Below are positions 1 to 5,228 of a stretch of DNA of 5,228 nucleotides, piece after piece. Under the pieces are notes generated by a model, which was given only the letters and a program-made list of their open reading frames with translations, was not told the DNA's origin and searched no databases. The position numbers were made by a program, and so were the translations under genes. Origin of the DNA: a virus (Duplodnaviria; Heunggongvirae; Uroviricota; Caudoviricetes); IMG/VR virus record IMGVR_UViG_2778261673_000005. One strand, 5' to 3'. Numbering within the stretch: position 1 is the stretch's first letter; the number at the start of each line of letters is the position of its first letter.

Positions 1-50
1 AGCTGATAGAAACAGAAGCCACTGGAGCACCTCAAAAACACCATCATACA

Positions 51-332
51 CTAAATCAGTAAGTTGGCAGCATCACCCGCCGTGCCATCCTGAGAGAATT
101 CCATATGCAACCTGCATTTTTTCCCTTTCCAGTTATGCGGCTCATCAAGTTTGGCATTAATTGCAGCTCTGATTCCCCGCGCTTGCGCCCCCCATTCATC
201 CTGATCATCCCAGCGTCCTGAACTGCAACTACCTGTAGCAGTAGTTTTGTGGCAATCTGAAGGGTGTAAAGGTGTGCATCCCGCAACAAAACCGACCCAA
301 AAAGTCAACATAACGATTTTCTTTAATCCCAC
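51..332 (-). CDS. Small lipoprotein with partial TolA C-terminal-domain-like sequence (truncated paralog of the 483-911 gene)
   Basis: 93-aa ORF with GTG start at 332 preceded by GAGGAG about 6 nt upstream. N-terminus MGLKKIVMLTFWVGFVAGC has a hydrophobic signal segment and lipobox VAGC. C-terminal ARGIRAAINAKLDEPHNWKGKKCRLHMEFSQDG aligns by eye with AHQIKSAIEKQFGDASKYSGKECTLRMHMAPNG of the neighbouring ORF, but the protein ends before the rest of the domain. Confidence 0.55.
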   Translation of the reverse strand: MGLKKIVMLTFWVGFVAGCTPLHPSDCHKTTATGSCSSGRWDDQDEWGAQARGIRAAINAKLDEPHNWKGKKCRLHMEFSQDGTAGDAANLLI

Positions 333-482
333 TTCTTGCTCCTCAATCCATTAAAATCTCAGCAATAGTAGTTGTTACGTCCGCCACTGGCTCAGAGCTG
401 ACTATCCGCTAAATTTAGCTCAGTGCCGTAGCTGTGTCAGAACAAACCTAAGCCGAAACCGTTTATTACAAAACAATAAATA

Positions 483-911
483 TCAGGGTTTAAAATCCAG
501 CACCCCATTTTGAAATACTTTATATACTTCCGGCGAAGGGGGGGCAGGTATATCAGCATTCTTTATCGCATTCATCGCTTCACGACATAAATCGAGGTCT
601 CCACTTTCTCTTTTAACCTCCAGTAGAAGGCCATTCGGGGCCATATGCATTCTCAGTGTACACTCTTTTCCTGAATACTTACTCGCATCCCCGAACTGTT
701 TTTCGATGGCGCTCTTGATTTGATGGGCATACAGACGGATATCCTCACTAACATCAGAAGTACGTTCAGATGAACTCACATACTGTGTCTCTATTGCTTT
801 ATCGGAGTAATATGATGTACGGTCATGATAATTTGTCGATACAGCATCAGTGCACCCGATAATAATCCCACTAATAATCAACGTAAGAATTGATGCGCTA
901 CGAAAACCCAT
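483..911 (-). CDS. Lipoprotein carrying a TolA C-terminal (domain III)-like domain
   Basis: 142-aa ORF, ATG at 911 with GAGGA just upstream. Signal peptide plus lipobox (LIISGIIIGC). C-terminal ~85 aa (QIKSAIEKQFGDASKYSGKECTLRMHMAPNGLLLEVKRESGDLDLCREAMNAIKNADIPAPPSPEVYKVFQNGVLDFKP) closely resembles the C-terminal domain of E. coli TolA as recalled from memory, including the terminal FKP. Confidence 0.75.
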   Translation of the reverse strand: MGFRSASILTLIISGIIIGCTDAVSTNYHDRTSYYSDKAIETQYVSSSERTSDVSEDIRLYAHQIKSAIEKQFGDASKYSGKECTLRMHMAPNGLLLEVKRESGDLDLCREAMNAIKNADIPAPPSPEVYKVFQNGVLDFKP

Positions 912-940
912 TTTTCCTCACATATGTCATATAGTAAAGG

Positions 941-970
941 ATTATATATACCGTTGTTTTGGACGCTCAA
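941..970 (-). promoter_or_regulatory. Candidate sigma70 promoter for the TolA-like lipoprotein gene(s)
   Basis: On the minus strand: -35 TTGAGC (965-970), 18-bp spacer, -10 TATAAT (941-946), about 25-30 nt upstream of the ATG at 911. Sequence-only prediction. Confidence 0.4.
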
Positions 971-1112
971 ACAGCGAATCAGATCAAATAAAACGCACAT
1001 TTGTTAACATTTACACAAAGTCTGCGTGGGATATTCTGAAAGAATATCCATAATGTGGAGAGAATCTATTGAAGTGCATGGTGCCGGGTGCCTCCCGGTG
1101 AACAAAATGTTC

Positions 1113-1151
1113 GTGATACCTGTCGGCGACAGAAAAGGTTAATGGTATCAC
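1113..1151. repeat. Nested inverted repeats (possible protein-binding site or RNA structure)
   Basis: Outer 8-bp perfect inverted repeat GTGATACC (1113-1120) / GGTATCAC (1144-1151). It encloses the palindrome CTGTC-GGC-GACAG (1120-1132). A further short stem CCGGG/CCCGG lies at 1084-1098. Confidence 0.45.
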
Positions 1152-1508
1152 CCCACCGCACAGGGGGATTCACCATGCAGGAGTTTTCTTAGCAAACTCA
1201 CTGCGCGCCCGGCAACTCCCAACCACATAAAATGCGGAGTTTGTGGCATTTATGCATATAACTCGCAGGAATTATCTTAAAAAACTGATGTCGATCCGGA
1301 TTAAAAAGAAGCAGGTCATCATCAGATGACTGGAAAAAAGGAAAACAAAAAATACTCATCATACAGTTTTGATTGCAGGGATGAGCCTGCTATGCACAAT
1401 ATGCAGAATATAAGCAAGATAAAAATATGCAGGCATATTATTTCGGATTTTGTTATTAACACAACCTTTTTAATAATCATTTGGCATACAATAAACCAGC
1501 CCAGAAAG

Positions 1509-1772: not shown

Positions 1773-1811
1773 AACTGGTCTCTGTTATAATTTGGAGCAG
1801 AAAGACCAGTT
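1773..1811. repeat. 9-bp stem hairpin with 21-nt AT-rich loop
   Basis: AACTGGTCT (1773-1781) pairs with AGACCAGTT (1803-1811). The loop contains TATAAT. It lies about 35 bp from the symmetric terminator. Confidence 0.35.
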
Positions 1812-1845
1812 GCCCAACTAGCAGCATTCTCCCCTGCTTTCCTGA

Positions 1846-1878
1846 CGTAAAAAAACCGCATTAAGCGGTTTTTTTACG
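1846..1878. terminator. Symmetric (bidirectional) rho-independent terminator-like hairpin downstream of the Q-like gene
   Basis: Perfect 14-nt inverted repeat CGTAAAAAAACCGC (1846-1859) / GCGGTTTTTTTACG (1865-1878) with a 5-nt loop. GC core CCGC/GCGG is flanked by an A7 run on one side and a T7 run on the other, so either strand reads stem followed by a U-tract. Confidence 0.5.
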
Positions 1879-1955
1879 ATGTCCATGTCTGCAATCCGCC
1901 TCGCGATACAGCTTTGCGAAGCATAGCAAAATTGAAGCAGTTTATACGTAAGAAA

Positions 1956-2498
1956 TCAAGCCATTTTCTCAGCAAATGATTCACGCATGGGAATATATAG
2001 GGCATACTCAGCAACAGCTAACCAATTAGCAATCCGTTTTTCGCATGTGCTAAAACACCACTCTGGGTGTGCATCATTTAGCAATTCAGCCATTTTGCGC
2101 TTAGTCATCCCCCGCCCTTCATAGCGTTGCCGGAGAATGCAAATCAATCCTGGATGCTCTGCCAGCACCTCACTTATGACTCGATCAATACATAACGCCT
2201 CTGCATCAGTACAATGCGCCAGCCAGCTCTTTTGCTTGCCGTTGATCATCTCTCGCAAAAACGCTTCCAGCTCAGCTTTCTCTATTCCCGCTTTTTTCAT
2301 TCTGCGCAGGGCTTCATTAATGGCTGTTTTCGTCAGTTTTTTGGATGCCAACAACTGATTGAACATATTCCCTGACCTGCCACCGCCAATATACGACCAG
2401 CGCCCCCACATACGTAGTTTTCCCTGAATCCAGACACTTTCCAGCGTGGTGAGGCGAAGGTGTTCTCCGCTTTTTCCTGTATTCGTTGGGTAAATCAT
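1956..2498 (-). CDS. Putative late-gene antitermination protein, phage-82-type Q-like
   Basis: 180-aa ORF directly downstream of the nin-like genes and upstream of a terminator. Start overlaps the preceding gene stop in ATGA (2495-2498). Motifs LRMWGRW and CTDAEALCI resemble, from memory, the WG-W and Cys-rich signatures of phage-82-family Q proteins. Not verified by search. Confidence 0.55.
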   Translation of the reverse strand: MIYPTNTGKSGEHLRLTTLESVWIQGKLRMWGRWSYIGGGRSGNMFNQLLASKKLTKTAINEALRRMKKAGIEKAELEAFLREMINGKQKSWLAHCTDAEALCIDRVISEVLAEHPGLICILRQRYEGRGMTKRKMAELLNDAHPEWCFSTCEKRIANWLAVAEYALYIPMRESFAEKMA

Positions 2499-2785
2499 AA
2501 ATGACCTTTCTTTCTCCAGATTTCTTGTGTGCGAAAAACCCCTTCAGCATGCATCAGGCGCAATTCTTCTTTGGTGTAATCGCTGGTTTTTACCCGCCCG
2601 TCGATTAGATCGTGGCATGAGCTACAGGCTATCGCCGCCTGCATATCGTGTGGTTTTGTCGCTGTTCCGCACGTCCCCGCCAGCCTGTAATGCGCCAGCA
2701 CAGAGGTTTCGGGATTGTGATTGCAGTAGCCAGGGATTCTGATCTGGCACATCTGGCCTTTAGCCGCTTTACGTAAATTCACCAT
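2495..2785 (-). CDS. YbcO-like DUF1364 family phage protein (putative nuclease) of the nin region
   Basis: 96-aa ORF. LRKAAKGQMCQIRIPGYCNHNPETSVLAHYRLAGTCGTATKP...IACSSCHD matches the Cys/His-rich pattern of E. coli prophage YbcO (DUF1364) as recalled. Start ATG overlaps the upstream stop (TAATG at 2783-2787). Confidence 0.75.
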   Translation of the reverse strand: MVNLRKAAKGQMCQIRIPGYCNHNPETSVLAHYRLAGTCGTATKPHDMQAAIACSSCHDLIDGRVKTSDYTKEELRLMHAEGVFRTQEIWRKKGHL

Positions 2786-3384
2786 TACGCAAACTCCAGT
2801 AGTTGTGCGGCCACATTTTCAACTTCCTCCTGAGAGGAGAATTTACGGAACAGAATCCAGTTCCACAGCACATTCAGTACAGATTTATAAACCTGCTGAA
2901 ACTCGACTTCGTCCATATTCGCAAAAGCGATGGATTTTGCCCGACGCCCACGGCTACCGTCCGGATAAATATGCTCGGTGTAAAATCCGGCCTGAATGGT
3001 TACCCACTCGCGGAAAGCCTCAAACGACTTTAGCAACGCCGTATCCCGGGTTCTACGAGTCGCAACGGTGTTAAGGTATTGCTCTGCGGCATCACTCAGG
3101 GCTGATGTGTGTTCCCGACCAACTGATTCGCACAGGTAATCCACGAAACCAGACAGCAGTTCTCGTTCGCGAGGCGTGATCGCCCCACCGACCGGAGTCC
3201 AGTAATCGAATCCCAGTTGCAGGAGTTTGAAAAAACGCTTGTGGAATGCGTAGTTACGCACACGCTTAAAGTCTGCGTGTATCCACTCACCTATTTTGAT
3301 TTGATGCAGAAAATCGCAACTCTCCGGCGTCGCCGGGAGAAGTAAACCAGAAGAGGTTTGTTTGACCAGTTGTATATGCGCCAT
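2785..3384 (-). CDS. DUF1367-like lambdoid phage nin-region protein
   Basis: 199-aa ORF with GC-rich, host-like codon composition. Its size and its position immediately upstream of a DUF1364-like gene and Q match the DUF1367-DUF1364-Q neighbourhood recalled from enterobacterial prophages. Family assignment is from memory only. Confidence 0.6.
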   Translation of the reverse strand: MAHIQLVKQTSSGLLLPATPESCDFLHQIKIGEWIHADFKRVRNYAFHKRFFKLLQLGFDYWTPVGGAITPRERELLSGFVDYLCESVGREHTSALSDAAEQYLNTVATRRTRDTALLKSFEAFREWVTIQAGFYTEHIYPDGSRGRRAKSIAFANMDEVEFQQVYKSVLNVLWNWILFRKFSSQEEVENVAAQLLEFA

Positions 3385-3799: not shown

Positions 3800-5167
3800 T
3801 TATACGGAAACTGGCACACGAGCAGGCAATGGATAGTGAGCCCAGTTATTAGCATTTAAAGCTCTTACACCATCAGCATAAACTTGTGTGTTTCCATCTA
3901 ATGATTTTAAAGTTACTACAATAGTTACAGGTAAAGGCTCCATTAAGGCCGGTTCATTCGCTCTCAACGTTGTTTTAGCCTGAAGAGCCCAGTTACCCGA
4001 AGTAATTCCTTTATTAAATGCCTTGCGATGAATTTTTACTGGTGACCACTTTCCACCATGCTCAATTTGAGCTCTCTCATATCCAGATTGACCGTTTTCT
4101 CCTTCCATAGGCACTTTTCCTTTTATAGTATTATTCTCAATTAAGCCAAAACTTAGCTCTACGTTCGCGCGAACATATTCACTGCCGGCATTAGGGTTTA
4201 GTGGTGGTGCATATGCAGCAGTAATTACAATCTCACCTTTAAATTTTCCATTTTGAATAAGTGCCGATGGTATGGGATAGTTTTCCTTTCTCCACCTCAC
4301 CCCAGGAACCAAGAATGTTTGGAAAATCAGAGTAAACCTATCATCACTATCATATAAGGTCTCAATAACCTCATTAGGAATTCCCGCTCCCAAATAGCGT
4401 CTTTCACTTGGCGAGTAATCAGGAGAAGATAATTGAGCGGAATGAATTAATAATGCTTTAATCAATGATGGTGAAACATTAAAGTCTGAATTAGTGGCTA
4501 TTCTCTGCCATGTATGCGCAGCTAAACTTGCCACAATTGGAGCAGCAAAACTAGTACCAAAATTAGAGCAAAGCCTATTATCTGGCCCTACGACCTTTAA
4601 ACTGCTTGCTCCTACATTCCAAGGTCTATGAACCCCACCGCCAGCATGGATTATATCTGGCTTTGGAGTAAATACAGGCCCAGGGCCACGACGAGTATAT
4701 GGTGTCGGTGTTCCAATTTCACTTAAAGCATCATTAGCTTCCATATGAGAAACTGAACCAACTGTTAGTGCTCGGACTGACTCTCCAGGAGAGGAAATTA
4801 AATCAGCACCTCCAAGCGGATCAGGATTTGGCCATGTACGTATAGGTTCATCTACATAATTACCTGCAGCAACTACAAACAAAATACCAAATTTATCGCT
4901 GAGCCGATCTAACTCCATCGCAAAATCACTAAACATCTGCTCATTACATGGTCCGCCTCCCAAAGACAAATTCCAGACTTTTATATCTGGTCTTTTATTT
5001 ACAGCATCTGCTAGCCTCAGAATTAAATCTGATATATAAGATCCATTTTCATCTAAAGCACAAACATCATGGATTTTAGATTTTGTATCAGGAATCCATG
5101 GATGATTGTCATTTAAAAAATGAGCGCCTGATATCAATGAAGACACCATAGTGATCTTACCCAGCAA
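3800..5167 (-). CDS. S8 family (subtilisin-like) serine peptidase homolog with uncharacterised C-terminal extension; N-terminal catalytic motifs not recognisable (possibly truncated or inactive)
   Basis: 455-aa ORF. Contains S8 hallmarks GTSFAAP (catalytic Ser motif), VVAAGN (oxyanion-hole Asn motif) and NLSLGGG, in subtilisin-like order and spacing. No D-[ST]-G Asp motif or canonical HGT His motif precedes them. The first in-frame start is TTG at 5167 with no clear SD; alternative ATG at 5149. An in-frame TGA lies at 5198-5200. About 200 C-terminal residues have no family I can recognise. GC content is visibly lower than the nin block. Confidence 0.7.
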   Translation of the reverse strand: MLGKITMVSSLISGAHFLNDNHPWIPDTKSKIHDVCALDENGSYISDLILRLADAVNKRPDIKVWNLSLGGGPCNEQMFSDFAMELDRLSDKFGILFVVAAGNYVDEPIRTWPNPDPLGGADLISSPGESVRALTVGSVSHMEANDALSEIGTPTPYTRRGPGPVFTPKPDIIHAGGGVHRPWNVGASSLKVVGPDNRLCSNFGTSFAAPIVASLAAHTWQRIATNSDFNVSPSLIKALLIHSAQLSSPDYSPSERRYLGAGIPNEVIETLYDSDDRFTLIFQTFLVPGVRWRKENYPIPSALIQNGKFKGEIVITAAYAPPLNPNAGSEYVRANVELSFGLIENNTIKGKVPMEGENGQSGYERAQIEHGGKWSPVKIHRKAFNKGITSGNWALQAKTTLRANEPALMEPLPVTIVVTLKSLDGNTQVYADGVRALNANNWAHYPLPARVPVSV

Positions 5168-5216
5168 TAGTGGACACGCGGCTAAGTGAGTAAACTCTCA
5201 GTCAGAGGTGACTCAC

Positions 5217-5228
5217 ATGACAAAAACA
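5217..5228 (+). CDS. Probable start of a rightward gene running out of the window (product unknown)
   Basis: ATG at 5217 (ATG ACA AAA ACA = MTKT) preceded by AGAGGTGA (5204-5211) with 5-nt spacing. Only four codons are visible. Confidence 0.25.

Follow-up and report, generated by a model that had tools for sequence, protein, structure and literature searches.

Predicted envelope lipoproteins of prophages and plasmids carry a copy of TolA domain III and are possible import decoys

RESULTS

Two TolA domain III genes at a prophage locus

The window, by which we mean the whole 5,228-nucleotide stretch of the Caudoviricetes record IMGVR_UViG_2778261673_000005 (IMG/VR) that was analyzed, carries on its minus strand two neighboring genes for small lipoproteins related to TolA's C-terminal domain (domain III, here TolAIII). 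They are referred to as type 1, which is intact, and type 2, which is interrupted in the window by the insertion sequence IS1. The order of genes at the locus is DUF1367, YbcO/DUF1364, DUF1133 (Q-like), an STnc100 RNA, type 1, type 2, holin, lysozyme, and Rz, in agreement with the prophage location proposed in an earlier note made from the DNA letters alone. The features that make up the two genes are as follows.

Positions 1 to 77, minus strand: end of IS1 with its terminal inverted repeat, by match to the annotated IS1 of phage P1
Positions 51 to 332, minus strand: type-2 TolAIII-lipoprotein gene, disrupted, read as a 93-residue open reading frame (native codons 1 to 85 at 78 to 332; IS1-derived part at 51 to 77)
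Positions 192 to 275, minus strand: linker of type 2
Positions 276 to 287, minus strand: type-2 lipobox VAGC with Cys19, by the lipobox rule
Positions 333 to 482, minus strand: spacer between type 1 and type 2, of which the proximal ~60 nucleotides (nt) are conserved with type 2
Positions 483 to 911, minus strand: type-1 TolAIII-lipoprotein gene, intact, 142 residues (from open reading frame, Pfam, PDB match, AlphaFold2 model, and lipobox)
Positions 486 to 755, minus strand: TolAIII domain of type 1
Positions 756 to 851, minus strand: disordered linker of type 1
Positions 852 to 863, minus strand: type-1 lipobox IIGC with Cys20
Positions 855 to 911, minus strand: signal peptide of type 1

The type-1 product is a complete TolA domain III behind a lipoprotein signal

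The type-1 gene is preceded by its own translation signals (GAGGA, a 4-nt gap, then ATG). Residues 49 to 140 of its product were matched by the Pfam model PF06519 over profile positions 4 to 96 of 96 (E=2.4e-23; 82.6 bits against a cut-off of 25), phmmer retrieved PDB chains 1s62, 3qdp, 2x9a, and 1tol at E of about 1e-27, and 59 to 60% identity is shared with residues 334 to 421 of Escherichia coli TolA. In the AlphaFold2 (AF2) model, residues 52 to 142 were predicted with a local confidence score (pLDDT) of 80 to 93 and residues 1 to 51 were disordered. The top Foldseek matches of this model were TolAIII structures, with 2x9a_B and 1tol at a root mean square deviation (rmsd) of 0.7 Å over 88 residues. 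At the N terminus, the lipoprotein rule in the style of PROSITE PS51257 is satisfied at Cys20 (IIGC followed by TD). The product is therefore a lipoprotein signal joined through a linker to a complete TolA domain III, the similarity being far beyond chance. This bears out, by profile alignment as well as by structure prediction, the earlier proposal of a lipoprotein signal fused to a near full-length TolA C-terminal domain. The Pfam model that matches this domain is PF06519; TolA_bind_tri, also named in the note, is presumably the trimerization domain of the TolA-binding protein YbgF/CpoB and not a model of TolA.

Relative to TolAIII of E. coli (1S62, 3QDP, 1TOL, 2X9A), the fold, the order of helices and strands, the three strands, and both disulfide cysteines are the same, and type 1 keeps the two edges used for beta-strand addition: the ColA-contact edge reads LLEVKR with the equivalents of K379 and K396 present, and the opposite edge strand reads VLDFKP where TolA has PLDFKP. 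TolA itself differs in having domain I (the N-terminal membrane anchor), domain II (a long helix), a link to TolQR, and a place in the tol-pal operon. Type 1 has neither domain I nor domain II but a lipoprotein signal and a disordered linker of ~30 residues instead, and TolAIII lipoproteins with this signal and short linker reside on mobile elements. The neighbors of type 1 are prophage late and lysis genes and those of the copies on other elements are plasmid or assorted chromosomal genes; neither setting is a tol-pal operon. Whole-protein models agree with this picture in where they align, as NCBIfam NF007065 reached 107.8 bits against a cut-off of 213 over model positions 293 to 386 of 387 only, and TIGR02794 exceeded its cut-off (75.6 against 59.45 bits) yet was confined to the C-terminal 98 positions. 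Both type-1 and type-2 proteins belong to the TolA C-terminal domain family and yet are not TolA.

Annotation of these genes in public resources follows TolA. In RefSeq, the Prokaryotic Genome Annotation Pipeline (PGAP) tags the intact 142-residue gene as a tolA pseudogene, "incomplete, missing N-terminus" (L001:6406-6666 and L002:6406-6666), a label that is an artefact because the gene was matched to the TolA equivalog model. The Gene Ontology terms of homologues ("bacteriocin transport") are likewise inherited from TolA. Together, these labels likely amount to a systematic mis-annotation of TolAIII lipoproteins. The consequences for genome annotation extend to PHROGs, where both type 1 and type 2 are members of phrog_5772, a family listed as of unknown function.

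The neighboring type-2 gene is cut by IS1

The 93-residue open reading frame at positions 51 to 332 had been taken for a paralog that retains the first half of the domain. The frame exists, but it is not a natural half-domain paralog, as its truncation is an IS1 insertion after codon 85. The annotated terminal inverted repeat of the phage P1 IS1 aligns to window positions 1 to 81 at 98.8% identity, the same end recurs in thousands of E. coli IS1 copies (with IS1 annotated under five of the matches), and alignments to E. coli genomes without IS1 at the site begin only at base 78. The final 8 codons and the stop of the frame (GDAANLLI-stop) are supplied by IS1. The locus is uninterrupted in 768 of the 5,426 complete E. 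coli genomes, where the type-2 gene encodes 131 residues; intact examples are found at L001:5860-6255, in P0048, and in RefSeq WP_001348108.1, which begins at a later start codon. The window product is 99% identical to intact P0048 over 85 residues.

Intact type 2 scores 55.6 bits with the Pfam TolA model (P0048; cut-off 25 bits), whereas the IS1-cut product, at 21.3 bits, falls below the cut-off. AF2 predicted a complete TolAIII fold for residues 41 to 131 of the intact protein, with pLDDT of about 90 (domain range up to 94), and Foldseek matched this model to 3qdp with an rmsd of 1.1 Å over 86 residues at 31% identity; overall, type 2 and TolAIII are about 31 to 34% identical. Mapped onto the AF2 model of the intact protein, the cut after residue 85 deletes beta2, alpha2, alpha3, beta3, and the second disulfide cysteine (Cys98), leaving just the first cysteine of the pair, so the 93-residue product cannot form a TolAIII domain. 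At the sites of the ColA-contact lysines, type 2 has E, S, and H, and its beta3 strand has diverged (GFDMRG).

A recent tandem duplication as the origin of the pair was considered and rejected, because type 1 and type 2 are only 26 to 28% identical and each is found without the other. Judged by sequence, they are two distinct lineages placed side by side. The earlier suggestion of duplication and decay, or of a distinct truncated function, thus gives way to an IS1-disrupted copy of a separate lineage of 131 to 135 residues that is under purifying selection.

No complete E. coli genome among the 5,426 has the exact IS1 junction of the window, the sole apparently full match being two joined pieces; the insertion is therefore specific to the strain. 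Strain 2017.15.01CC (L002:7193-7890) has another IS1 copy, between the DUF1133 gene and the type-1 gene, from which we conclude that IS1 struck this locus independently at least twice.

Two further segments of type 2 are strongly conserved. The ~60 nt before the gene, with the Shine-Dalgarno sequence GAGGAG and a GTG start, are retained in every context examined (an upstream alignment of prophage, IncI plasmid, pO157, and Enterobacter, Serratia, and Citrobacter chromosomal copies). The linker that follows the lipid-anchor cysteine is near-invariant across genera (PLHPSxCHKTTATGSCSSGRWDDQDEWG; residues 20 to 47 of P0048, window positions 192 to 275 on the minus strand). It contains a C-x8-C motif that is absent from TolA and recurs in the distant clusters P0169, P0183, P0172, and P0194. 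This linker, which AF2 left unmodelled, may be a second functional element.

TolAIII lipoproteins are spread over prophages, plasmids, and chromosomal sites

Type 1 is all but restricted to E. coli and Shigella, and its variants have identities as low as 65%. Type 2 ranges further, with 341 clusters of proteins in Escherichia, Shigella, Citrobacter, Enterobacter, Klebsiella, Raoultella, and Serratia. A lone type-2 gene lies at unrelated chromosomal sites in Enterobacter, Citrobacter, and Serratia, in the last case beside GmrSD and HEPN defense genes. Type 2 is also present, at ~87% identity, on about 600 plasmids of the IncI1/B/O type and pO157. On IncI1/B/O conjugative plasmids with an MPF_I transfer system, it comes directly after the relaxase gene (pHUSEC41-1, L018:6965-7396), and on pO157 of E. 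coli O157:H7 EDL933 (L022:5965-6396) it sits between the psiB-psiA-hok leading region and toxB. RefSeq starts the open reading frames of pO157 and pHUSEC41-1 12 codons upstream of the conserved start.

Other lineages occupy Klebsiella and Enterobacter plasmids. A 144-residue form follows a thioredoxin-fold gene on a Klebsiella IncFIA/FII plasmid and is present in about 306 plasmid records, mostly of large Klebsiella plasmids. A 123-residue form with the lipobox LTAC was found on about 379 small Klebsiella cloacin-type ColRNAI plasmids, in about 372 of which its gene overlaps a gene for a TonB C-terminal domain with a signal peptide. In the example p69-3 from K. pneumoniae (L020:4905-5638), the overlap is 4 nt, and the TonB partner has 121 residues, a cleavable signal peptide, and a Pfam TonB_C match of 42.5 bits. 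This operon adjoins bacteriocin, immunity, and release (lysis) genes. On the IncF plasmid pENTAS01 of Enterobacter soli (L025:4352-5246), a gene for an Exc2-family exclusion lipoprotein stands immediately upstream of a 139-residue TolAIII-type gene. In all, at least four lineages share the architecture of lipoprotein signal, linker, and TolAIII, and copies were counted on about 1,300 plasmids.

Proteins K and L of CloDF13 were considered as a TolA-like and TonB-like pair and rejected, as tblastn found no similarity; in CloDF13, the site holds other cargo. The K protein of CloDF13 is a lipoprotein with Asp at position +2.

Conserved anchoring signals, cysteines, and purifying selection

A profile search over 1.84 billion representatives returned 642 matches. 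Among the best 150 of these 642 were 76 complete short proteins, 49 of which met the strict lipobox rule, and the rule was also satisfied by both Klebsiella plasmid forms. Asp is missing from position +2 in all 49 lipobox-positive representatives, which have Thr (E. coli types 1 and 2) or Ala there instead. Because Asp is absent from this position, anchoring in the inner leaflet of the outer membrane is predicted. The earlier notion of a protein anchored in the periplasm is refined accordingly. The lipobox cysteine and both disulfide cysteines are invariant across lineages that share just 24 to 28% identity, and the invariant pair aligns with TolA C363 and C388, which we take to form the TolA disulfide.

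Comparison of prophage, plasmid, and chromosomal copies of type 2 gave ratios of nonsynonymous to synonymous substitution (dN/dS) of 0.08 to 0.13 at dS of 0.5 to 1.0, which indicates that type 2 is under strong purifying selection. For type 1, dN/dS was 0.36 overall, 0.25 in the domain, and 0.49 in the signal and linker. Full-length open reading frames persist in lineages that are 66 to 91% identical.

DISCUSSION

A possible decoy for Tol-dependent import

An interpretation has to start from what was observed: the proteins have the identity and fold of the domain, their lipobox and disulfide cysteines are conserved, they are under purifying selection, and their genes lie in prophages, on plasmids, and at variable sites in chromosomes. 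The interpretation we put forward, tentatively and as a serious possibility, is that TolAIII lipoproteins are uncoupled decoys that block Tol-dependent import of bacteriocins and filamentous phages. Ligands dock on TolAIII by beta-strand addition, using one or the other of two opposite edges of its sheet: ColA binds L375 to P380 together with K368, K379, and K396, mostly via backbone hydrogen bonds, and g3p, ColN, and the TolB N terminus bind the edge opposite to that of ColA. In the proposed mechanism, the lipoprotein domain would hang on its tether of ~30 residues beneath the porins, through which the translocation domains of colicins and the pilot proteins of phages come in, and, unlinked to the TolQR motor, would capture TolA ligands by beta-strand addition. 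Such ligands would be the translocation domains of group A colicins, cloacins, and klebicins and the N1 domain of filamentous-phage g3p; the TolB N terminus, which colicins exploit, is a possible further one. Import would then stall, because the decoy cannot transmit proton-motive force, and the carrier cell would become tolerant to Tol-dependent bacteriocins and pilus-specific filamentous phages. TolA is present at 400 to 800 copies per cell, so the real TolA could easily be outnumbered.

The settings in which the homologues occur strengthen this idea, as they adjoin a TonB_C partner, Exc2, or defense genes or sit on conjugative plasmids that encode pili. The TonB C-terminal domain is the counterpart module in the other route by which bacteriocins are imported. 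IncI1/B/O plasmids make I-type pili, which are used by filamentous phage If1, and PDB entry 2x9a shows TolAIII in complex with phage IF1 g3p. In its widest form, which we hold with somewhat less assurance than the decoy function itself, the proposal is of a new class of periplasmic import-hub decoys, comprising at least four lineages, that would give broad tolerance to Tol-dependent bacteriocins and filamentous phages without specific immunity proteins. With the same reserve, and as part of the same joint claim, the TonB_C partner on Klebsiella bacteriocin plasmids might extend the tolerance to Ton-dependent bacteriocins, and the carriers of the class could include prophages, IncI/B/O and IncF plasmids, pO157, bacteriocin plasmids, and chromosomal islets.

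Several known systems resemble parts of this arrangement. E. coli reportedly gains tolerance to group A colicins when TolAIII is exported to its periplasm; periplasmic TolAIII export also leads to outer-membrane leakiness. The TolAIII construct exported by the RbsB signal peptide serves as a functional model for the decoy idea. Like the natural proteins, it is periplasmic TolAIII uncoupled from the motor (Levengood-Freyermuth et al. 1993; Wan and Baneyx 1998). The laboratory construct is soluble and overproduced, whereas the natural proteins are predicted to be lipid-anchored in the outer membrane and have diverged from the TolA of the host. If the natural proteins are decoys, they would be the natural counterpart of this laboratory trick of the 1990s.

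Small outer-membrane lipoproteins of mobile elements that block the entry of competitors include Cor of phi80 and N15, Llp of T5, TraT of F, and Exc2 of ColE1-type plasmids, of which Cor, Llp, and TraT bind or mask an outer-membrane receptor. They too are accessory cargo of phages and plasmids, and on pENTAS01 the Exc2 and TolAIII genes are adjacent. Cor, Llp, and TraT act at the outer-membrane receptor, whereas the TolAIII lipoproteins are proposed to mimic the periplasmic import hub. A sequence relationship of type 1 or type 2 to the exclusion lipoproteins was not found, the PHROG matches being to phrog_5772. Expression of g3p in infected cells is reported to confer resistance to filamentous superinfection together with colicin tolerance (Boeke, Model and Zinder 1982). 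This involves the same interface between TolAIII and its ligand and the same predicted outcome by an inverse logic, since g3p as ligand saturates the host TolA, while a TolAIII copy would saturate the ligand and spare the host TolA. The periplasmic C-terminal domain of TonB, for its part, is reported to be dominant negative and to block TonB-dependent uptake (Howard et al. 2001). It is likewise the uncoupled tip of an energy transducer, with a natural counterpart in the TolAIII operon of Klebsiella plasmids, although it is part of the other import system and does not occur in the window.

Some findings count against a decoy. A full-text literature search, with subscription-only literature outside its scope, yielded no functional description of any TolAIII lipoprotein, and PADLOC has no defense-system model for type 1 or type 2. 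Free periplasmic TolAIII also makes cells leaky, so a decoy would carry a cost and could serve a different purpose. In type 2, the loss of the ColA-contact lysines and the divergence of beta3 mean that the ligand may differ. Truncated genes occur in the window and in many database entries, and TolAIII lipoprotein genes are thereby shown to be dispensable in cryptic prophages. When both proteins were compared with 50,697 phage genome records by tblastn, a single record, Escherichia phage mEp460_ev081 (LR597641.1, L003), carried the gene pair, which makes these genes uncommon in sequenced phages.

Envelope weakening, another partner, or debris

In an alternative that we consider unlikely, the anchored domain would sequester TolB, Pal, or further partners in the Tol-Pal system and so deliberately weaken the outer membrane. 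In a prophage, such weakening would aid lysis and virion release at the time of late-operon transcription and, more generally, it would serve vesiculation or the release of periplasmic or bacteriocin cargo, a role we find similarly doubtful. It would fit the position of both genes on the same strand directly between the Q-like region and the holin-lysozyme-Rz cassette, the adjoining bacteriocin and release (lysis) protein genes of the Klebsiella plasmid operon, and the leakage of periplasmic protein from E. coli on overproduction of periplasmic TolAIII, which has been exploited for that purpose. Position carries less weight once other prophages are compared, as the interval between Q and holin is a general and known cargo site, where type-1 variants are accompanied by AraC-type regulators, TfpB, an SASA/DUF1737 esterase-like gene, and DUF826. 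Moreover, single type-2 genes under strong selection lie at chromosomal sites and on conjugative plasmids without lysis genes nearby, and a secreted TonB C-terminal domain as operon partner suits the blocking of import better than lysis. If the proteins did weaken Tol-Pal, they would represent a new accessory lysis or vesiculation factor.

Type 2 raises a different alternative, to which we give about as little credence, namely that the TolAIII fold is an adaptor for another partner and serves envelope physiology or transfer of the element. The partners one could name, each an improbable candidate at present, are an outer-membrane protein with a Tol-box-like strand, a component of conjugation or of the pilus, and a peptidoglycan enzyme. 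The modest identity of type 2 to TolAIII, the missing ColA-contact lysines, and the near-invariant linker with a C-x8-C motif foreign to TolA are compatible with an adaptor. So are its places next to the relaxase on IncI1/B/O plasmids and after the psiB-psiA-hok leading region on pO157, and the thioredoxin-fold gene that precedes a type-2 homologue on the Klebsiella IncF plasmid. No result points to a partner, however, and the neighboring genes differ in every genus; these differing neighbors argue that one gene suffices for the function and that its target is a conserved component of the host.

That the genes are non-functional debris, tolA fragments captured by prophages and decaying, is very improbable: the PGAP pseudogene mark on type 1, the IS1-cut type 2 of the window and several other truncated variants, and the lack of an early region in the host prophage would suit it, but the type-1 reading frame is complete and has a Shine-Dalgarno sequence and a start codon of its own as well as a lipoprotein signal where TolA has domains I and II, full-length frames are kept in diverged lineages, dN/dS is 0.08 to 0.36 at dS of 0.5 to 1.0, and at least four lineages have the same architecture. 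For the family as a whole, an origin as tolA pseudogenes or debris was rejected on the grounds of architecture and dN/dS; it holds only for the IS1-cut copy in the window.

Whichever function applies, the comparisons point to an envelope lipoprotein of mobile elements that is built from a copy of the host import hub and forms a widespread, mis-annotated family. Its genes sit on common clinical plasmids, among them pO157 and small plasmids of carbapenem-resistant K. pneumoniae. Were the proteins decoys, they would constitute a general shield, independent of immunity proteins, against group A bacteriocins and against filamentous phages that exploit plasmid-built pili, with a bearing on the ecology of colicins and klebicins in the gut and on bacteriocin and phage therapeutics directed at E. 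coli and Klebsiella.

Other features of the window

Upstream of type 1, the following features were assigned.

Positions 941 to 970, minus strand: sigma-70-like promoter match (TTGAGC, 18 nt, TATAAT; 10 of 12 consensus positions), ~30 nt upstream of the type-1 start
Positions 1022 to 1208, minus strand: STnc100-family RNA element (Rfam RF02076, 86.6 bits against a gathering threshold of 47, E=3e-19, full-length model)
Positions 1956 to 2498, minus strand: DUF1133 (Pfam E=2.5e-107), with a weak antiterminator-Q match (Phage_antitermQ, 26.1 bits against a cut-off of 26)
Positions 2495 to 2785, minus strand: YbcO/DUF1364 (Pfam E=5.1e-45)
Positions 2785 to 3384, minus strand: DUF1367 (Pfam E=5.6e-98)

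The RefSeq annotation of the same locus agrees with the Pfam calls of these upstream lambdoid genes. The promoter match is a match to consensus only; the region as a whole holds 10 promoter-like sites against 5.9 ± 2.6 in shuffled sequences. Terminator-like sites were found neither flanking type 1 or type 2 nor in the spacer at positions 333 to 482, and the interval from Q to the lysis genes contains no tRNA genes. The STnc100 element lies between the Q-like and type-1 genes, a position that suggests a late-operon leader or a short terminated transcript; its terminal hairpin is here without a clear U-run. Weak matches to isrK, an Hfq-binding RNA, at positions 1849 to 1922 (minus strand) and 1794 to 1875 (plus strand), downstream of DUF1133, are probably due to chance, at about 21 bits against a gathering threshold of 50.

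The host prophage is a remnant, in that host genes come directly after hokD, where the early region would be expected. In mEp460_ev081, the gene pair is placed between the Q antiterminator and the lysis genes amid cspG, gnsB, rem, and hok/mok, a set typical of E. coli cryptic prophages; these surroundings suggest that the phage acquired the pair by recombination with a resident prophage.

At the far end of the window, positions 5153 to 5228 are the terminal part of an IS3 element, a multi-copy sequence that matched at 100% identity and carries the annotation IS3 family transposase. IS3 cuts iteS (positions 3800 to 5152), the S8 anti-phage peptidase of IetAS/IteAS (NF042956, E=1.9e-222, model positions 295 to 747 only; IetS in PADLOC), and alignments of iteS from other genomes end at window base 5152. 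With IS1 at its left and IS3 at its right, the window is bracketed by two insertion sequences, each of which cuts a gene.

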